Shown here: piece by piece, positions 4,733 to 26,872 of the stretch
Position numbering within the stretch: position 1 is the first letter of the stretch
How the letters are laid out: each line of letters starts with the position of its first letter
Sequence record: OK283619.1
Source of the DNA: Escherichia phage LPEK22
DNA: 64,000 nt
Reading direction: 5' to 3' (one strand)
The notes under the pieces: generated by a model
Databases searched by the model: none
What the model was told of the DNA's origin: nothing
Seen by the model: only the letters and a program-made list of their open reading frames with translations
Position numbers and translations under genes: made by a program

Positions 4733-5171
4733 TTGTTTCTCCTTTTGCTGCATACGACAGAGCTTTTACGATCATAACAGCCAAACCGATAGGATCGTAT
4801 GCATTGTCGAATTCTTGTTCTATGTTCTGACGAATTTCATCAGAAGATTGTACTTCAGAGCAGTTCTTACTCTGTCTGCGTTGCTCTTGCTCGACTAGAT
4901 CTTTGAACAGAAGGTCTTTGAAAGAATACTCATCGAAGTTTTCAAGATACCGTTGGATGCTTGGTTGTTTTACATCCATCGTTTGACGCAAATTGCTAAT
5001 AGTTGAACTTGCCTGTTCGCGGTGTTTGTTCATAACAGCAAAGTTAACGGGCTTGCCCCAAGCATTCATCACTGGATTAGAGCATACTTGGCCAAAGAGA
5101 TCTTGGAAGGCATCATCCATGTGGATCAACGCAGTGGCCAATTCCTCATAAGTCGGTTTTTGAGTAGTCAT
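4725..5171 (-). CDS. hypothetical protein
   Basis: 148-aa ORF; GGAG RBS; ATGA overlap with upstream gene. Confidence 0.55.
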   Translation of the reverse strand: MTTQKPTYEELATALIHMDDAFQDLFGQVCSNPVMNAWGKPVNFAVMNKHREQASSTISNLRQTMDVKQPSIQRYLENFDEYSFKDLLFKDLVEQEQRRQSKNCSEVQSSDEIRQNIEQEFDNAYDPIGLAVMIVKALSYAAKGETNV

Positions 5172-22735: not shown

Positions 22736-22760
22736 GAAGCCCGATCTTCCTGATCGGGCT
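22736..22760 (-). terminator. intrinsic terminator closing the tRNA-cluster transcript
   Basis: AGCCCGATC-loop-GATCGGGCT hairpin followed by UUCUUUUUGU on the minus-strand RNA. Confidence 0.5.
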
Positions 22761-22986
22761 ATGTTAAACCATCGTGGGGATGGAAAGACTACTCACAGCA
22801 ATTTCTAGTATTAGGCGTTTGGGAGAGTGCGTCGGGAATCGAACCCGAAACCGTCAGGACAATGAAAAGCTATTGCATTTCACCTTGCATATCCTCCGGC
22901 TTTCTTAACTTCCTTAACCCCAGATTGTTATGAAGTCAGCATGCACACCTTCTTCATCTTCAGGAAGTCACACTCATTATTCTGAT

Positions 22987-23071
22987 TGCTTCAACTGGAT
23001 TCGAACCAGTGACCTCAGGCACCTTGTTCTCTCGAAACTTTCCTGCGCTCTACCACTCGAGCTATGAAGCA
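22987..23071 (-). tRNA. tRNA-like element, atypical (85 nt)
   Basis: Perfect 7-bp acceptor stem (TGCTTCA/TGAAGCA), canonical D-arm (GCTC-GAGTGGTA-GAGC) and T-arm (ACTGG-TTCGAAT-CCAGT), but no standard 5-bp/7-nt anticodon arm. Confidence 0.35.
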
Positions 23072-23074
23072 ATT

Positions 23075-23163
23075 TGGCGGAAGGTGAAGGATTCGAACCT
23101 TCGGGGGCTAAAAGCCCCACTCGATTAGCAGTCGAGTCCCTTAAACCTCTCGGGCAACCTTCC
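23075..23163 (-). tRNA. tRNA-Ser (anticodon GCU), type II with long variable arm
   Basis: Hand fold of reverse complement: acceptor GGAAGGT/ACCTTCC, anticodon stem CTCGA/TCGAG, loop CUGCUAA, variable hairpin GGGGC-TTTTA-GCCCC, T-arm GAAGG-TTCGAAT-CCTTC, encoded CCA. Confidence 0.6.
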
Positions 23164-23989
23164 GTATACTGCGCTTCGGTCAAGAATTTCCAAGCCATGA
23201 CCTAAATCTGGGTTCTTGACCTGACCGAAACGACTTATTGGTGCTCGTTAGAGGATTTGAACCCCAGCACTCTGGTGATCAACCCAGAGAGTCGCGCCTC
23301 ATCCATTTGTTAGCCTAAACGAGTCTTGCAAAACCCGCACCGACCGTCTACAAACAGACTGCTTGACCGAGCGTAATATGGACGGGCTTCACACCCGATT
23401 GTGCATTTGATCTGCCGTAGCCCAACTCCCCGCGCTTATCAGCGCCGATTGGTTAACTGACACCAGTGCCTTCTGGTTCGATCTCCTGGAACTTTACAGG
23501 CTTCGCGCCCGACCATTTCTGGAAGTTGGGGCATCGTTTCCGATGTGGAGTCACCCCATTTTATACACAGCTGGCTGCAACGCTTACTGTGTTTGGTCTA
23601 CCACCACGTGCTGGGCCACGCTTGAGGACATCGGCCATCCTTCCTCAGCTAATCCACGCGGTGGTAGATTTTGTATCAGAGTGTCCGGTGTAGCTTTCCG
23701 TGAGGTGCGCACTACTGTAGCCTCTACACTCTGAATTTGGTGGGCGTTACTTTCGTCGGGTTCAGATTCCGTTCGGCTATTAGACGTCGCTCGAGAGAAC
23801 TTGTCGTTCGCGTACTTCGTGCTTACTTGCTTTCGTTTCACACCCATTGTTTGTCGTCGGGCGGGGGATTCAAACCCCAATCTTTAGTTTGTGTTTCTTC
23901 AAAGCTATCATATGTTCACTTTGAATACTAGACTCCCCTGGACATCAAAACAGAATCTCTATTCCATCCTGCAAGACCCGACATAATCC

Positions 23990-24065
23990 TGGCGACGATG
24001 ACAGGACTTGAACCTGCGACATACGATTTAACAGACCGCCGTTCTACCGACTGAACTACATCGTC
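23990..24065 (-). tRNA. tRNA-Asn (anticodon GUU)
   Basis: Hand fold: acceptor GACGATG/CATCGTC, D-arm GTTC-AGTCGGTA-GAAC, anticodon loop CUGUUAA, T-arm GCAGG-TTCAAGT-CCTGT, encoded CCA; close to E. coli tRNA-Asn. Confidence 0.6.
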
Positions 24066-24480
24066 TCTATTCTTACTTTCGTAAACACTCTTTATTCTGC
24101 ATGAAGATCCAGGGCAGGATCATAACGATCGTAAGTTTTTGGATGAGACCCGTTCTTGATGCTCACCATCCGACCTTCCCAACTAGCGCGAATTCTGTTG
24201 GAAATCACCACCCAAATATTCTTCATAATATAGAACCCTTCAACTATGTTTATTCGCTTCGATCGCCCTTAATTGGGCGTCCGCGTCAGCTTTGGTGCCA
24301 TGTGTCCCAAGAACATTAGTCTTGGTGTGGTCAAGGACAACCCACTTATCGCCTCGCTTTTCAACAAACTCAACAATCTCTTTGTTGTCGGTAGCGAGAC
24401 CATCCCACTCAGTAAGAAAATCACCGAACGTTTTCATCATACTCACCAATTGTTTATTGAACAACTGGTTTATTTAGTGG

Positions 24481-24556
24481 TGACCCTGGCTGGACTTGAA
24501 CCAGCGACCAATCGATTATGAGTCGACTGCTCTAACCACTGAGCTACGGGGCCAAA
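24481..24556 (-). tRNA. tRNA-Met (anticodon CAU; Met or Ile2)
   Basis: Hand fold: D-arm GCTC-AGTGGTTA-GAGC, anticodon stem GTCGA/TCGAT with loop CUCAUAA, T-arm GCTGG-TTCAAGT-CCAGC, encoded CCA. Confidence 0.6.
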
Positions 24557-26144
24557 ATTTGGCGGGGTCTGAGGATTTTCACCTCTCCTTGCTGGTTTGG
24601 CCGCCAGCCTGTTCTCTCTGGGGACTCGCTGTCCGGACAGCTGTCCCTTAAACTATCGCCCCATAATTTATTGTGTGACCAACCAAGGTCTCTCAACCCT
24701 TTATCCCGTTTGTGCATGATCAGTTCATGCATGCCTGTTTGTGCGCCTCACGGCAACGCGCTTCTGTGGGTCTTTGGCTTGCACCGTAGCCTCACCACAG
24801 GCGTTTATTTTTCCAGGGCTTTCCACTTGCAAGTCTTGACCATACAGGGATACGGGCTTGCAAGATCGGGTTGGACACAACTTTGATGGCTCTGGTACTA
24901 AAGATCCCGCGTCACCCATAGACATGGTTTATGAAATCCAGAGCCATCAAAGTTGCAACCAAATGTCACAACTCGCATTCAATGTCTTCGTCACACCGAA
25001 TACTTGTCCTCTATCGCTCGGACCAAACGAGGCTGGCCGACAGAAACATAACACCACTCATCACTAGAGCGAGGATGTGGTTGATGGCCACGATGTAATG
25101 TCTCTATCGAAGAGTGATCACACTTGTCAGATGATCACTGTTTTGCGAACTCGAGAATACTGCGCCTGTCTCGGGTTTCCCCTTAGTTCGGCCTCTCATT
25201 GTTCGTCTAGTCAGGGAGCTACCCTTGATGACCAGCTTATATTGAGATCTTCGCCAGCGCCCACCAGTGTCTAGAATGTGTAGGCGTCGAGGTCTGCAAG
25301 GCATTGCCCTATTTCATACAACGCTCTCTCAAGTACGCAAATCGAAGTTCTCTGGGCTTAACAGGTTCGACCCAACATGTTGTATATCGCCTAACTTACT
25401 CATGGGACGGCCACTTCTGTGTACAGACCTTGAGGGTTAAAAGATATACCCAGAGAACTTCGATTTGCGTTGCCCTTCACTTGCCAGAGATCAGGGCAAT
25501 TGGTAAGACTTCGCTCACATCTTAGAGGACACTGCACGGGACTCGAACCCGCCACGAACATTTGGCGCCAAATGCTTCCACCTGTCAATGTCCTCTAAGA
25601 TGTGGAGCCGTTTTAGGGAGTCGAACCCAAATGCTTGGCCAGCGCTGACCTTACATCCCATCTGACTTAGGCAACCCACCTCTGCCTACTCAGGAGCTTA
25701 TCCCCTTTGGACAGTCAGATATAACGGCTTTGGGATTGGAGGAAGGACTCGAACCTTCTCATGTACGCTCCTGATTTCTCAGAAGTAGTCTGCTCCCATC
25801 GACCTATTAAGTACACGCTCCGCTCATTGTCGGCGGGAGATTATTAATCACACCCTCCCGCCTATTTTAGTGCGCCGAATTTTGTTATGAGGAATCGGAA
25901 GACCTCACTGGTGTATGGCTATTAAGCTACTGCCAGGAACGTGTTATCATTAGCGATTATTTTTGTGGTCAGTTTCTAAAAACCCGCAAAGTCACGCACA
26001 ACGAAAACGAAAACCTGTTTGAGTCCTAAACCTACCTGTCTTGGTCTCACATCGCTATGAGTGGCCAGGACTCAAACAGCTTGCCGTTCAGTGAGTTAAC
26101 TATACTTTGTAACCCGTTATTGATAAAACCTTTTATTTTTGTTG

Positions 26145-26244
26145 ACGAGGGTGTGGAATCGAACCACACTTCTGAGCGCTGCCCCGTGTCACCAATGCAC
26201 CACCTCACCATCGATTTGCCGGAACTTACGCATCCGGCCTCGTC
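26145..26244 (-). ncRNA. tRNA-like element, about 100 nt
   Basis: 6-bp acceptor-type stem (ACGAGG/CCTCGT) plus T-arm GTGTGG-TTCGATT-CCACAC, but about 25 nt too long for a tRNA; inner hairpin CCGGA-N9-TCCGG. Confidence 0.3.
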
Positions 26245-26872
26245 CTGTCGGTGTTCTTCTGAATCCGGGAAGATCAGCAGGAACTATGAATCAAGTTAAT
26301 TCAACCAACAGGAATCCTCTTGTTGCCCTTTGACGCAACATTATGAACCCTCTATGAAGATTCATAATGTTGTCGGCGTGATGGAGATTAGCGCCCCCGA
26401 CCTCCCCTTATATGTTGGTGTCGACTTGCCAACGGGGTGCTCTCGTTTTTCTGAGCTAATCACGCTACAACAGGGAGTTTCGTTCTCCGACGGTCAAGTG
26501 CGTCCACTGACACCAGCGAGGTGGCTATTACGCCTCTATTCACACAAGCCCCTGAGACTAGGGGTTAACTGGTTTTGGGCTGCAAACCCGACTCCCACTG
26601 TGTTATTTCCCTCATGTTTAATACTTTACCGCAGCCCAGCTAATTTGAAAAGTCCTCTCCCCTTTGAGCTACACTGCCCACAGCAGTGCGGACGAACCTT
26701 CACTCAAAACCGGATGCGCCGAAGTGGGCAACTGTTTACCGGACTGATCAGGTAGACCCAGGAGAGAGCAGGTAATCCCGATCAGGAGGATGAGGAGTAA
26801 CATCATGTAAAACATAGTGTTCCCTCCCTTCCATGCAACTAACTTTACTACAATTATTTATTGAATAAAGCG

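Follow-up and report, generated by a model that had tools for sequence, protein, structure and literature searches.

What is encoded in a 3.5-kb stretch of phage DNA where a few intact transfer RNA (tRNA) genes lie among many elements that resemble tRNAs only in part? The stretch, at ~22.7–26.3 kb of a 64,000-nt window from Escherichia phage LPEK22 (OK283619.1; the window is the whole piece of DNA that was analyzed), was described in the initial annotation as a non-coding block whose abnormal elements could be decayed tRNA genes, tRNAs with short insertions or introns, or structured small RNAs. Our analysis identifies the block as an RNA island, conserved and polycistronic, of a phage from the genus Kuttervirus (ViI-like, Ackermannviridae); all its RNA features lie on the (−) strand. 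The idea of structured RNAs thus stands, but two small coding sequences (CDSs) had been overlooked, and so had a ~185-nt RNA that, judged by its sequence and covariation, is derived from transfer-messenger RNA (tmRNA). This RNA lacks the tRNA-like domain, and it begins with a 5' arm antisense to the message region of the tmRNA of the host (ssrA).

The element, referred to below as the tmRNA mimic, emerged from a search with the tRNA-free half of the block, which matched a stretch of ~100–170 nt (25840–26008) in unrelated phages. Only tmRNA families of Rfam match it, in the window and in four unrelated phages, and all of them below the gathering score (RF04321, 20.6–30.6 bits vs 47; RF00023, 15.4 vs 47; RF01850, 14.6–18.7 vs 84). 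R1, a covariance model built from phage copies only, recovers diverged copies in Erwinia phage Bue1 (82 bits) and Serratia phage KNP4 (77 bits), and of the eight genuine tmRNA genes given to it, it matches every one in the message region, with E values of 0.008–0.15.

The message of the copy in the window reads AUAAUC GCU AAU GAU AAC ACG UUC CUG GCA GUA GCU UAA UAG and corresponds to the tag ANDNTFLAVA; the family consensus is AUAAAU-GCA-AAC-GAU-GAU-...-UAA, and the segment aligns to the Rfam tmRNA consensus AAAAAAUAAuUGCaAACgA. Tags in relatives include ANDDVVLMAA, ANEEMYLAVA, ANDNVFLAVA, ANDEQFLAVA, ANDSEVLMAA, ANDNEFKVAA and ANDNAYLMVA, to be compared with the genuine tags ANDENYALAA of E. 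coli and ANDETYALAA of S. typhimurium. When relatives were collected with a pattern that is independent of the open reading frame (ORF), exactly ten codons followed by a stop were present in 100 of 100 unique sequences, with TAA, TGA and TAG all in use. The residues U-5 and A-4 before the resume codon are invariant, and we take them to be the counterparts of the frame-setting positions of E. coli tmRNA (U85/A86).

The fold of the mimic was assessed in an alignment of 46 sequences from all carrier groups (alignment A3). Paired states fill 94.9% of the cells, compared with 26–46% when the partners are slid, 14 of the 30 pairs have changed on both sides, and none of 500 shuffles reaches the observed values. 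Covariation strongly supports the two downstream pseudoknots, PK2 and PK3. In PK2, the stem shows UA<->CG exchanges in 22 sequences, GC<->AU in 12 and AU<->GC in 11, and the pairing between loop and tail shows GC<->AU in 15 and AU<->GC in 8. In PK3, CG<->GC occurs in 9 sequences and CG<->UA in 4, and all four hairpin pairs covary. The PK3 loop motif GAUUAAUAA is invariant in the alignment; a PK3 variant in Bue1 (GGAGU/ACUCU) keeps the knot with the loop motif changed to UAUUAAAGAA. A helix resembling the first pseudoknot of tmRNA (PK1) shows no covariation and has an invariant C.A mismatch, and there is no PK4. Taken together, message and fold argue that the segment 25832–26015 is a derivative of tmRNA.

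A tRNA-like domain, with a G3:U70 acceptor, T-arm, 3' ACCA and helix 2, was not found for the mimic. ARAGORN, including its search for permuted genes, detects no tmRNA in the window or in seven related loci, where a single call in phage swi2 is spurious and overlaps tRNA-Met, and scans of 110 loci for T-arms and acceptor stems gave no consistent tRNA-like partner, HK620 and TR2 having none nearby. Because this defining domain is missing, the mimic is not classified here as a tmRNA. Two ways of supplying the domain from elsewhere in the island (features in Table 1) were considered and rejected. In a one-piece tmRNA spanning 26080–25603 (5' GCUGUUU, 3' AAACGGC-U-CCA) the third pair would be U3.G70 rather than G3.U70 and shows no compensatory change, the 5' strand already belongs to hairpin HP1, and module c is absent from EspM4VN, which keeps the mimic. 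In a permuted or two-piece tmRNA with an upstream module (module a, or the lambdoid 'AGUGCUC-UUUCC') the complementary 5' strand follows the mimic, so that the mimic would be the excised spacer, and the permuted ARAGORN search is negative for this arrangement as well.

The mimic is carried by the P22-like phage HK620, by Felix O1-like and N4-like phages, by siphoviruses of Klebsiella and E. coli, by 7-11 and SSU5, and by others. It matches 667 phage records, nearly all of them without annotation at that place and a few with hypothetical-protein CDSs, as well as 144 of 5426 complete E. coli genomes (~3%), none being annotated among the matches listed. Its place in HK620 and in an O26:H11 prophage is the late leader (pR'-tR'), between Q/pR' and the holin gene and in the sense of late transcription; in Felix-like phages it is found inside a tRNA cluster, and in swi2 tRNA-Met follows 300 nt downstream of it. 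A bacterial tmRNA of the same sequence was rejected as the source, the exact pattern being present in only 4 of 185,579 species genomes, all Enterobacterales and presumed prophages. Literature searches gave no account of this RNA. In published surveys of tmRNA genes, mycobacteriophages and Bacillus phage G are the only phages listed with a tmRNA, apart from DS6A, whose RNA has the tRNA-like domain alone. An RNA family found in more than 600 sequenced phages and in many prophages of pathogenic E. coli is missing from Rfam and from annotation.

What the mimic might act on is suggested by its 5' arm. The arm segments UAGUUUUCGUC, GUU.GCGAC and UUUGCGG.UUUUUA are collinearly complementary to ssrA nt 106–68, i.e., the 3' strand of PK1, the linker, the resume codon and the first six codons, and the alignment of arm and ssrA scores 36, compared with a mean of 17 and a maximum of 26 for shuffles. 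The first 8–10 nt of the arm (GUUUUCGU; (U)AGUUUUCGU) are at least 90% invariant in all families and have no covarying partner within the RNA, and (U)AGUUUUCGU is the exact complement of codons 3–6 of E. coli ssrA (GAC GAA AAC UA). The RNAduplex optimum of the arm always lies at ssrA nt 72–131, starting at nt 72–76, with −22 to −35 kcal/mol, whereas pairing with the message region of the mimic itself yields only −13 to −18 kcal/mol (−24 to −35 kcal/mol for the host in that comparison); the arm fits the host better because codons 4–6 of the mimic have diverged from those of the host. The z-scores of the arm duplex are −2.3 to −5.1 in six of the seven arm types, with −3.4 to −5.1 for four of the types and −0.8 to −2.5 for the others. 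Relative to 2844 natural 30-mers from the window, which define the empirical tails, the 30-mer TCGTTTTCGTTGTGCGTGACTTTGCGGGTT of the mimic in the window (−32.6 kcal/mol) is in the 0.4% tail, and four arm types including this one are in the 0.1–0.8% tail. Lineages keep different sub-segments of the one host target (GCGUCUAUUUUGC vs GCAAAAAAUAGUCGC in the Felix arm, GCGGCUGUUUUUA vs UAAAAAGCCGC in the 'type 2' arm). Only analyses restricted to the arm were useful here, whole-length RNAduplex runs and pairwise alignments of the mimic with ssrA being uninformative.

Two other pairings were tried and discarded. A partner in cis for the invariant GUUUUCGU, i.e., a complement of the ACGAAAAC type, exists only in Ackermannviridae, where it is part of HP1, and in 2 of 110 other loci. 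Kissing of the GAUUAAUAA loop with UUAAUCA of E. coli ssrA is taken as chance because this target differs in a Salmonella-like ssrA (CGAAUCA), a metagenomic sequence 97% identical to that of E. coli.

The mimic is embedded among tRNA-shaped elements, the nature of which is the second part of the question. Both strands of the window were scanned for T-arms, defined as a 5-bp stem with a TTCRANN loop, which gave 10 sites in the block, all of them on its (−) strand, and 17 in the ~124 kb of strand that make up the rest. With ~0.5 expected in the block, T-arms are enriched ~20-fold, on one strand only. The ten T-arms belong to three canonical tRNAs, a tRNA-like gene at 22986–23071 and six modules, a–f. 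Those near 22833, 25540, 25615 and 25750 had been regarded as isolated fragments; each turns out to have an acceptor stem of its own, in modules f, d, c and b, respectively. No match of modules a–f to RF00005 was obtained at E<=10 in a permissive Rfam run. An anticodon arm, with an 8-nt loop, is seen in module e and in none of a, b, c, d and f. NCCA stands directly 3' of the stem in b (C-CCA), c (CCA) and e (A-CCA), and in the lambdoid modules described below (U-CCA); in a (A-ACA) and f (U-CCCA) the motif is only approximated.

The modules differ in their distribution. Module a is 95% identical in the Agtrevirus Gloob, and in Vi01 its place is taken by another tRNA-like module of 143 nt. Module b occurs in part of Kuttervirus only and module c is restricted to Ackermannviridae, neither being found outside that family. 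Module c (25603–25729, compared with 4962–5090 of locus L005) is 98% identical to its counterpart in Klebsiella phage KP6F1, whereas neighboring modules are 70–80% identical, which argues for an independent and recent horizontal transfer of single RNA modules; on sequence grounds, modules thus appear to move horizontally as units. Its encoded CCA (25603–25605) shares bases with the beginning of the 19-bp stem in module d, so that processing of either RNA would affect an end of its neighbor. Module d gives weak matches to the tRNA-Sec and mascRNA-menRNA models in the permissive Rfam run, and homologues of module e stand upstream of tRNA-Tyr in Vi01 and KP6F1. In module f, which is shared by Kuttervirus, Agtrevirus and Taipeivirus at 72–78% identity, RNAalifold finds 43 pairs, 10 of them with compensatory changes, including the acceptor stem (UA<->CG) and the T stem.

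The tRNA-like gene at 22986–23071 has 22 nt where the Rfam model has 9, above a 4-bp anticodon stem. The proposal of a short insertion or intron holds for this gene alone and as a description only (13 extra nucleotides): no intron family was detected, and the insert is regarded as a conserved motif rather than a random insertion or intron because its segment GCGCAGGAAAGUUUCGAGAGAACAAGGUGCCUG is 85% identical to part of a lambdoid 126-nt module (loci L010, L008, L025, L032, L051 and L094). The motif GCGCAGGA.AG.UUCG..AGAACAAGGUGCCUG is common to this gene and a module in the late leaders of HK620, swi2 and prophages. The gene is annotated as tRNA-OTHER in ST-W77 and as 'tRNA-OTHER' or 'undetermined' in relatives; the copy in Vi01 ends in A-CCA, that in the window in A-UCA.

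The flanks of the mimic in prophages suggest what the modules do. In many prophages the sequence runs '...T-arm-AGUGCUCUU-U-CCA' directly into GUUUUCGU, i.e., the mimic starts immediately after CCA; its 3' end in many of them abuts 'AAGAGCAUU', with which the following module opens as the 5' strand of an identical 9-bp acceptor helix. The mimic of Ackermannviridae, Felix-like phages and swi2 has a sigma-70-type promoter of its own instead. The sequence TTGACA-17-TATAGT / TAGATT lies immediately upstream of it in Felix-like and swi2 phages, and a TATAGT −10 element stands at the place matching that in the window in Bue1 and KNP4. The lambdoid pR'-tR' late leader is an array of modules in its own right (L010, HK620, RNA-sense 2310–2900; L008, swi2, 2660–2870; many IMG/VR prophages), each closed by the same 9–11-bp helix (AAGAGCAU.../...UGCUCUU) followed by UCC(A/G). 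A further lambdoid module is a 126-nt tRNA-like RNA (UGUGGUG...CRCCACA-ACCA), the T-loop of which is canonical in some prophages and degenerate in HK620. An NCCA that follows the stem is known to be recognized by RNase P (PMC12710915).

By extension from the mimic flanks in prophages, with CCA before and an acceptor strand after, we propose that punctuation of the intervening RNAs would be the main role of all seven tRNA-shaped modules in the window. The mimic would be released by RNase P cutting at the acceptor stem downstream of it and by tRNA 3'-end enzymes acting at the CCA upstream, and its 5' arm would then pair with the host tmRNA in the message region. The arm might simply silence tagging, as a laboratory anti-ssrA oligonucleotide does. 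Alternatively, it might displace the 3' strand of host PK1 and the host message by strand exchange and thereby mask the host resume codon. The CCAC-linker-resume codon of the mimic would then sit next to the 5' strand of host PK1, and the host tRNA-like domain and SmpB would rescue ribosomes and add a tag specified by the phage.

That the mimic acts on host tmRNA and trans-translation through its 5' arm is in our view an even proposition. More tentatively, and with the odds against it, we suggest that a 'headless' tmRNA present in at least five unrelated phage families reprograms trans-translation as one piece of a hybrid, two-piece tmRNA of host and phage. Several observations weigh against the explanation as a whole. 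The Felix and 'type 2' arms, in the 5.6% and 19% tails, have modest complementarity, and the whole 35-nt arm of the window has a z-score of −2.3 with E. coli tmRNA and of −1.4 with Salmonella-like tmRNA, where the tag ANDETYALAA entails a mismatch or bulge. The arm segment CUUUGCGG can also pair in cis with CCACAAAG of the mimic in the PK1-like helix, with 7 of 8 pairs, the same count as with the host, and HP1 ties up the beginning of the arm in Ackermannviridae. The mimic is absent from Dickeya Limestonevirus. Furthermore, the tRNA-like modules are lineage-specific and independently exchanged, and they may be functional in themselves. As to the cis helix, the position of its C.A mismatch is paired in 0 of 37 sequences in cis and forms C-G with host CCGCAAA in 37 of 37.

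The rival accounts of the mimic have to deal with the message and with the missing domain. As a plain antisense inhibitor, the mimic would mask the resume codon and tag of host tmRNA, and its tmRNA-like body would be a scaffold or a self-inhibitory closure that is never decoded. The complementarity of the arm to the tmRNA message region fits this as it stands, the pairing of the arm with its own message and with HP1 would suit a switch between closed and open states, and there is a precedent in vitro in an anti-tmRNA oligonucleotide that suppresses release from stalled ribosomes (PMC3384345). The account leaves unexplained, however, why there are strictly 10 codons, why the stop is kept through turnover of its identity, why U-5 and A-4 are invariant, and why degron-like C-termini (LAVA, LMAA, LAAA), helix 5 and two pseudoknots are kept in at least five phage families. 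We consider it rather unlikely, and prefer the hybrid because it alone explains the conserved ORF, the stops and the frame-setting signal. A self-sufficient two-piece phage tmRNA, with the mimic as coding piece and a neighboring module as acceptor piece that is charged and delivered with SmpB, seems improbable. Natural two-piece tmRNAs exist (PMC10085705), the D-arm-less module b lies directly downstream of the mimic, and a downstream module in a Felix-like phage has the alanine identity set G3:U70 and A73-CCA. No type of module accompanies the mimic consistently, however: HK620, TR2 and many of the 110 loci have no T-arm nearby. Module b has G3.A70 and C73 and occurs in only some Kutterviruses, no base-pairing was found between the ends of the mimic and any module, and the ARAGORN search for permuted genes speaks against the idea as well.

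For the modules and hairpins, three further explanations can be offered. The modules might be functional products, either decoys or substitutes for host tRNAs that are attacked by anticodon nucleases and other tRNA-directed defenses, or sponges for SmpB, modification enzymes or the CCA-adding enzyme, with the intervening RNAs secondary. Their acceptor/T-arm geometry is kept, b, c and e encode NCCA, they are exchanged horizontally as units, as is often seen with counter-defense genes, and a phage RNA with only a tRNA-like domain is reported to inhibit tmRNA (PMC4131195). Most of them, however, have no look-alike of the anticodon arm, the usual target of the nucleases, their internal parts are entirely dissimilar, and, unlike the mimic, none was found outside Ackermannviridae; we regard this explanation as quite unlikely. 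Decayed tRNA genes and chance hairpins in a junk spacer are scarcely credible. That tRNA genes come and go at this place is shown by canonical tRNAs (Tyr, Gln) that relatives have and this genome lacks, but decay is contradicted by compensatory changes in acceptor, T and internal stems, by the encoded NCCA directly 3' of the acceptor stem in b, c and e, by 85–98% identity across genera against 70–80% in neighboring non-coding modules, and by the one-sided enrichment of T-arms. Helices are kept across Ackermannviridae genera by compensatory changes (10 of 43 pairs in f, 8 of 32 in HP3, 9 of 45 in X2a), in agreement with the reading as structured small RNAs. Very improbable, too, is that the elements work at the level of DNA, as recombination or homing sites or as an origin. 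Mosaic modules are shuffled between genera and HNH genes are inserted in relatives (Mutine, SNUABM-02, 0507-KN2-1), as such a view would have it; against it, the motifs are strand-specific, G-U pairs are tolerated, the pseudoknots covary, and a promoter and a terminator bracket the region. The patterns of substitution thus speak for modules and hairpins that are selected RNAs and not decayed genes.

Table 1 Features of the RNA island in the 64,000-nt window of Escherichia phage LPEK22
Feature	Coordinates	Strand	Basis
tmRNA-derived RNA without tRNA-like domain ('tmRNA body'), ~185 nt	25832..26015	-	model R1, 163.5 bits, E=7e-47, single copy in window
5' arm complementary to nt ~68-107 of host tmRNA (3' strand of PK1, resume codon, first six tag codons)	25977..26015	-	collinear complementarity to E. 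coli ssrA
mRNA-like domain: AUAAUC signal, resume codon GCU (25952-25954), tag ORF (25925-25954), stops UAA UAG (25919-25924)	25919..25960	-	sequence, alignments
Helix-5-like hairpin, CUGG/CCAG outer stem, stops in loop	25908..25936	-	CG<->UA in 9 sequences, GC<->AU in 16
Pseudoknot PK2: stem UGAGG/CCUCA, loop CCGA with downstream UCGG	25875..25907	-	covariation, 46 sequences
Pseudoknot PK3: hairpin GGCGGGAG/CUCCCGCC, loop GUGUG with upstream CGCAC	25832..25874	-	covariation, 46 sequences
Sigma-70-like promoter TTATCA-16-TATAGT, upstream of tmRNA-like RNA	26099..26126	-	consensus scan
HP1, ~22-bp hairpin, 3' strand contains start of antisense arm (GGUUUUCGUU)	26002..26092	-	inverted repeat I3
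Module a, 100 nt, four arms; acceptor GACGAGG/CCUCGUC, A73, then ACA	26143..26244	-	T-arm/acceptor scan; cloverleaf-like minimum free energy (MFE) fold
Module b, D-arm-less; acceptor AUGGGAG/CUCCAAU, G3.A70 mismatch, C73, CCA	25731..25800	-	weak tRNA-Sec match; T-arm/acceptor scan
Module c; acceptor AGCCGUU/AACGGCU, then CCA; two internal arms and T-arm	25603..25729	-	T-arm/acceptor scan, fold
Module d, 19-bp terminal stem around hairpin and T-arm	25516..25604	-	inverted repeat I4; MFE -46.8 kcal/mol, z=-7.5
HP2, long hairpin, 22-bp perfect stem	25335..25470	-	inverted repeat I2; z=-8.0; 3/44 pairs compensatory, 3 sequences only
HP3, long hairpin, ~19-25 bp stem	24866..24966	-	inverted repeat I1; z=-6.3; 8/32 pairs compensatory, 5 sequences
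X2a, conserved ~200-nt structured RNA	24665..24866	-	91% identity to Dickeya phage Ds9CZ; 9/45 pairs compensatory (RNAalifold)
tRNA-Met (CAU)	24478..24553	-	ARAGORN and Rfam, 68.4 bits
Small CDS of a genuine protein family, 65 aa	24243..24440	-	phrog_3684, E=3.5e-25; annotated in relatives
Small CDS, 44 aa, real protein family	24092..24226	-	phrog_6110, E=8.7e-27
tRNA-Asn (GUU)	23990..24065	-	ARAGORN and Rfam, 70.6 bits
Two conserved hairpin modules: m74 (23670-23743) and hairpin (23597-23668)	23597..23743	-	RNAalifold; hairpin region 23590-23670 z=-3.8
Module e; acceptor with 1:72 mismatch, A73-CCA, 6-bp stem with 8-nt loop GUUGAUCA	23239..23324	-	T-arm/acceptor scan, fold
tRNA-Ser (GCU)	23075..23163	-	ARAGORN and Rfam, 56 bits
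tRNA-like gene, expanded anticodon loop (22-nt region), 'tRNA-OTHER' in relatives	22986..23071	-	Rfam tRNA 48.7 bits (permissive run; gathering 29)
Module f, 151 nt, four arms; acceptor GAGUGUG/CGCACUC, tail UCCCA	22820..22975	-	RNAalifold, 6 genera-level sequences
Intrinsic terminator closing array	22738..22760	-	9-bp GC-rich stem then T run; annotated terminator in phage Mutine

Downstream of the mimic in the Felixounavirus E. coli O157 typing phage 11 there is an unannotated, D-arm-less tRNA-like gene of 78 nt (L009, 2665–2742), which directly follows the mimic. It scores 31.7 bits with the Rfam tRNA model, has the alanine identity set G3:U70 and A73-CCA, and carries the loop CUUCUAA with UCU, an arginine anticodon. 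Judged by these identity elements, the gene may supply the mimic with an acceptor piece charged with Ala, or it may encode a mis-incorporating tRNA. The corresponding site in other Felix-like contigs is occupied by an ordinary tRNA of 73 nt.

The island as a whole is larger than had been assumed: the RNA-rich region extends from ~26668 down to the terminator. Besides the three canonical tRNAs and the seven modules of tRNA shape, it contains several long hairpins, further structured stretches and two small genes for proteins, bracketed by a promoter region and one strong terminator. The block is ~99% identical to that of Salmonella phage BSP101 and at least 95% identical to those of many Kuttervirus genomes, including E. 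coli phage CBA120, where the identity is 100%. At the equivalent place, all Ackermannviridae genomes examined have 2.3–4.1 kb in which CDSs are annotated sparsely or not at all. On one side stands a small, conserved gene for a membrane peptide, itself downstream of the gp6 baseplate-wedge region, and on the other the gene that precedes the 'tail needle knob'. The island is a mosaic in which modules are present, absent or reordered from genus to genus, and genes for HNH homing endonucleases are inserted in the islands of Mutine, SNUABM-02, 0507-KN2-1, PMBT18 and SeF3a. Between the 48-amino-acid (aa) membrane-peptide gene and module a, ~420 nt (26250–26668, (−) strand) are 80–95% identical over four genera and contain no credible ORF; a hairpin there, ending ...AAUCUCC..GCCGACAA, is similar to the 3' hairpin of the mimic.

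The description of the block as non-coding is accurate for most of its length and fails at the two small CDSs of 65 and 44 aa, both of which match PHROG families. Four other ORFs, 23584–23880(−), 26330–26755(+), 25104–25304(−) and 24725–24925(−), have no PHROG match and overlap structured RNAs, and they were rejected as genes. The first of these (98 aa), a hypothetical protein in the BSP101 annotation, and the second (141 aa) overlap conserved structured RNAs and are probably annotation artefacts.

Among the hairpins, HP1 has 31 pairs, two of them compensatory, in an RNAalifold analysis of six Ackermannviridae sequences, and it is absent from carriers of the mimic outside this family. HP1, module d, HP2 and HP3 look like substrates of RNase III, to judge from their long stems. 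X2a has no Rfam match; it contains the invariant stretch GUGGAAAGCCCUGGAAAAAUAAAC and is conserved from Kuttervirus to Limestonevirus and Miltonvirus. The 74-nt hairpin m74, with the outer stem CAGAGUGU/ACACUCUG, recurs at 83–86% identity in N4-like phages (L085, 2000–2073; L090, 6621–6692) and is thus, after the tmRNA mimic, the second module that crosses phage families; together with the adjacent hairpin it overlaps the ORF that is annotated in BSP101 and has no PHROG match. Group I and group II introns, Y RNA (YrlA), GOLLD, ROOL and self-cleaving ribozymes gave no Rfam match at E<=10.

With respect to canonical tRNAs, the initial annotation had recognized three complete cloverleaves, Ser-GCU, Asn-GUU and Met-CAU, and exactly these three are returned by ARAGORN and by Rfam run at the gathering threshold (29 bits for RF00005), with standard, readable anticodon loops; under permissive filters the tRNA-like gene at 22986–23071 exceeds this score as well. 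The Met gene had been identified correctly and placed at 24481–24556, 3 nt off its position at 24478–24553. The covariance-model search did not resolve the block into a full set of canonical tRNAs free of residual structured elements. The canonical set differs even between close relatives: tRNA-Tyr (GUA) is present in ST-W77, Vi01, KP6F1, EspM4VN and Gloob, tRNA-Gln in Vi01 and KP6F1, and both have been lost from this genome (window 23235–23265, compared with L001 2044–2124 and L004 6650–6956).

If the proposed action on host tmRNA is correct, no natural RNA before the mimic would have been known to target or hijack trans-translation, which is the chief route of ribosome rescue and protein tagging in bacteria and a target of antibiotics, and the mimic would also explain the long-standing genetic links of ssrA with the growth of P22/lambda-type phages. 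It is short, with a defined seed and a predictable peptide tag. Whatever the mechanism, a 3.9-kb region that has been left empty or filled with spurious ORFs is a selected, modular RNA operon, in which phages use diverse tRNA-shaped modules, probably as processing punctuation, that move horizontally as units.

How does the island compare with known systems? Common to tmRNA (SsrA; RF00023, RF01850, RF04321) and the mimic are U-5/A-4 in an A-rich linker, a resume codon for alanine, an ORF of ten codons of the type ANDxxxLxxA, stops in the loop of helix 5 and downstream H-type pseudoknots, and the covariance models give weak, reciprocal matches. The mimic differs in having no tRNA-like domain, helix 2 or G3:U70 acceptor, only two pseudoknots after the ORF, scores below gathering, and, in place of a canonical PK1, a 5' region antisense to host tmRNA. 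The arm, UAGUUUUCGUC..GUU.GCGAC, overlaps the classic anti-ssrA oligonucleotide. Anti-ssrA oligonucleotides of ribosome display and cell-free translation target the same resume codon and tag codons; the mimic is a natural RNA with bulges inside a larger tmRNA-like fold, and its inhibition is putative. Phage tmRNAs have been described in mycobacteriophages (Bxz1 and others) and Bacillus phage G, and DS6A has a tRNA-like domain only (PMC4131195, PMC11915505); the truncated DS6A RNA is reported to inhibit tmRNA (PMC4131195) and may interfere with host trans-translation. The known phage tmRNAs keep the tRNA-like domain, DS6A nothing else, whereas the mimic is the converse, with the message part only. 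Both kinds are phage genes derived from tmRNA, and the mimic, in phages of Enterobacterales, was not flagged by those surveys.

The tRNA-shaped modules are comparable with tRNA-like processing signals such as mascRNA at the 3' end of MALAT1, t-elements of plant mitochondria and tRNA punctuation of polycistronic transcripts, where mimics of the acceptor and T-arm flank other RNAs. Those signals are eukaryotic or organellar, however, whereas the phage operon described here has seven modules of diverse kinds, some with four arms and a length of 100–150 nt, and their cleavage is predicted. GOLLD and ROOL are likewise structured non-coding RNAs that adjoin phage tRNAs, but the island consists of many small modules. 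In the tRNA cluster of phage T4, small stable RNAs (species 1 and 2, or RNA C and D) are co-transcribed with the tRNAs and matured by tRNA-processing enzymes; the likeness is one of arrangement and maturation, and T4 was not among the matches. The island is thus a variant of tRNA clusters, tRNA-like processing signals and tmRNA, and its surprising part is the headless, antisense-armed derivative of tmRNA.

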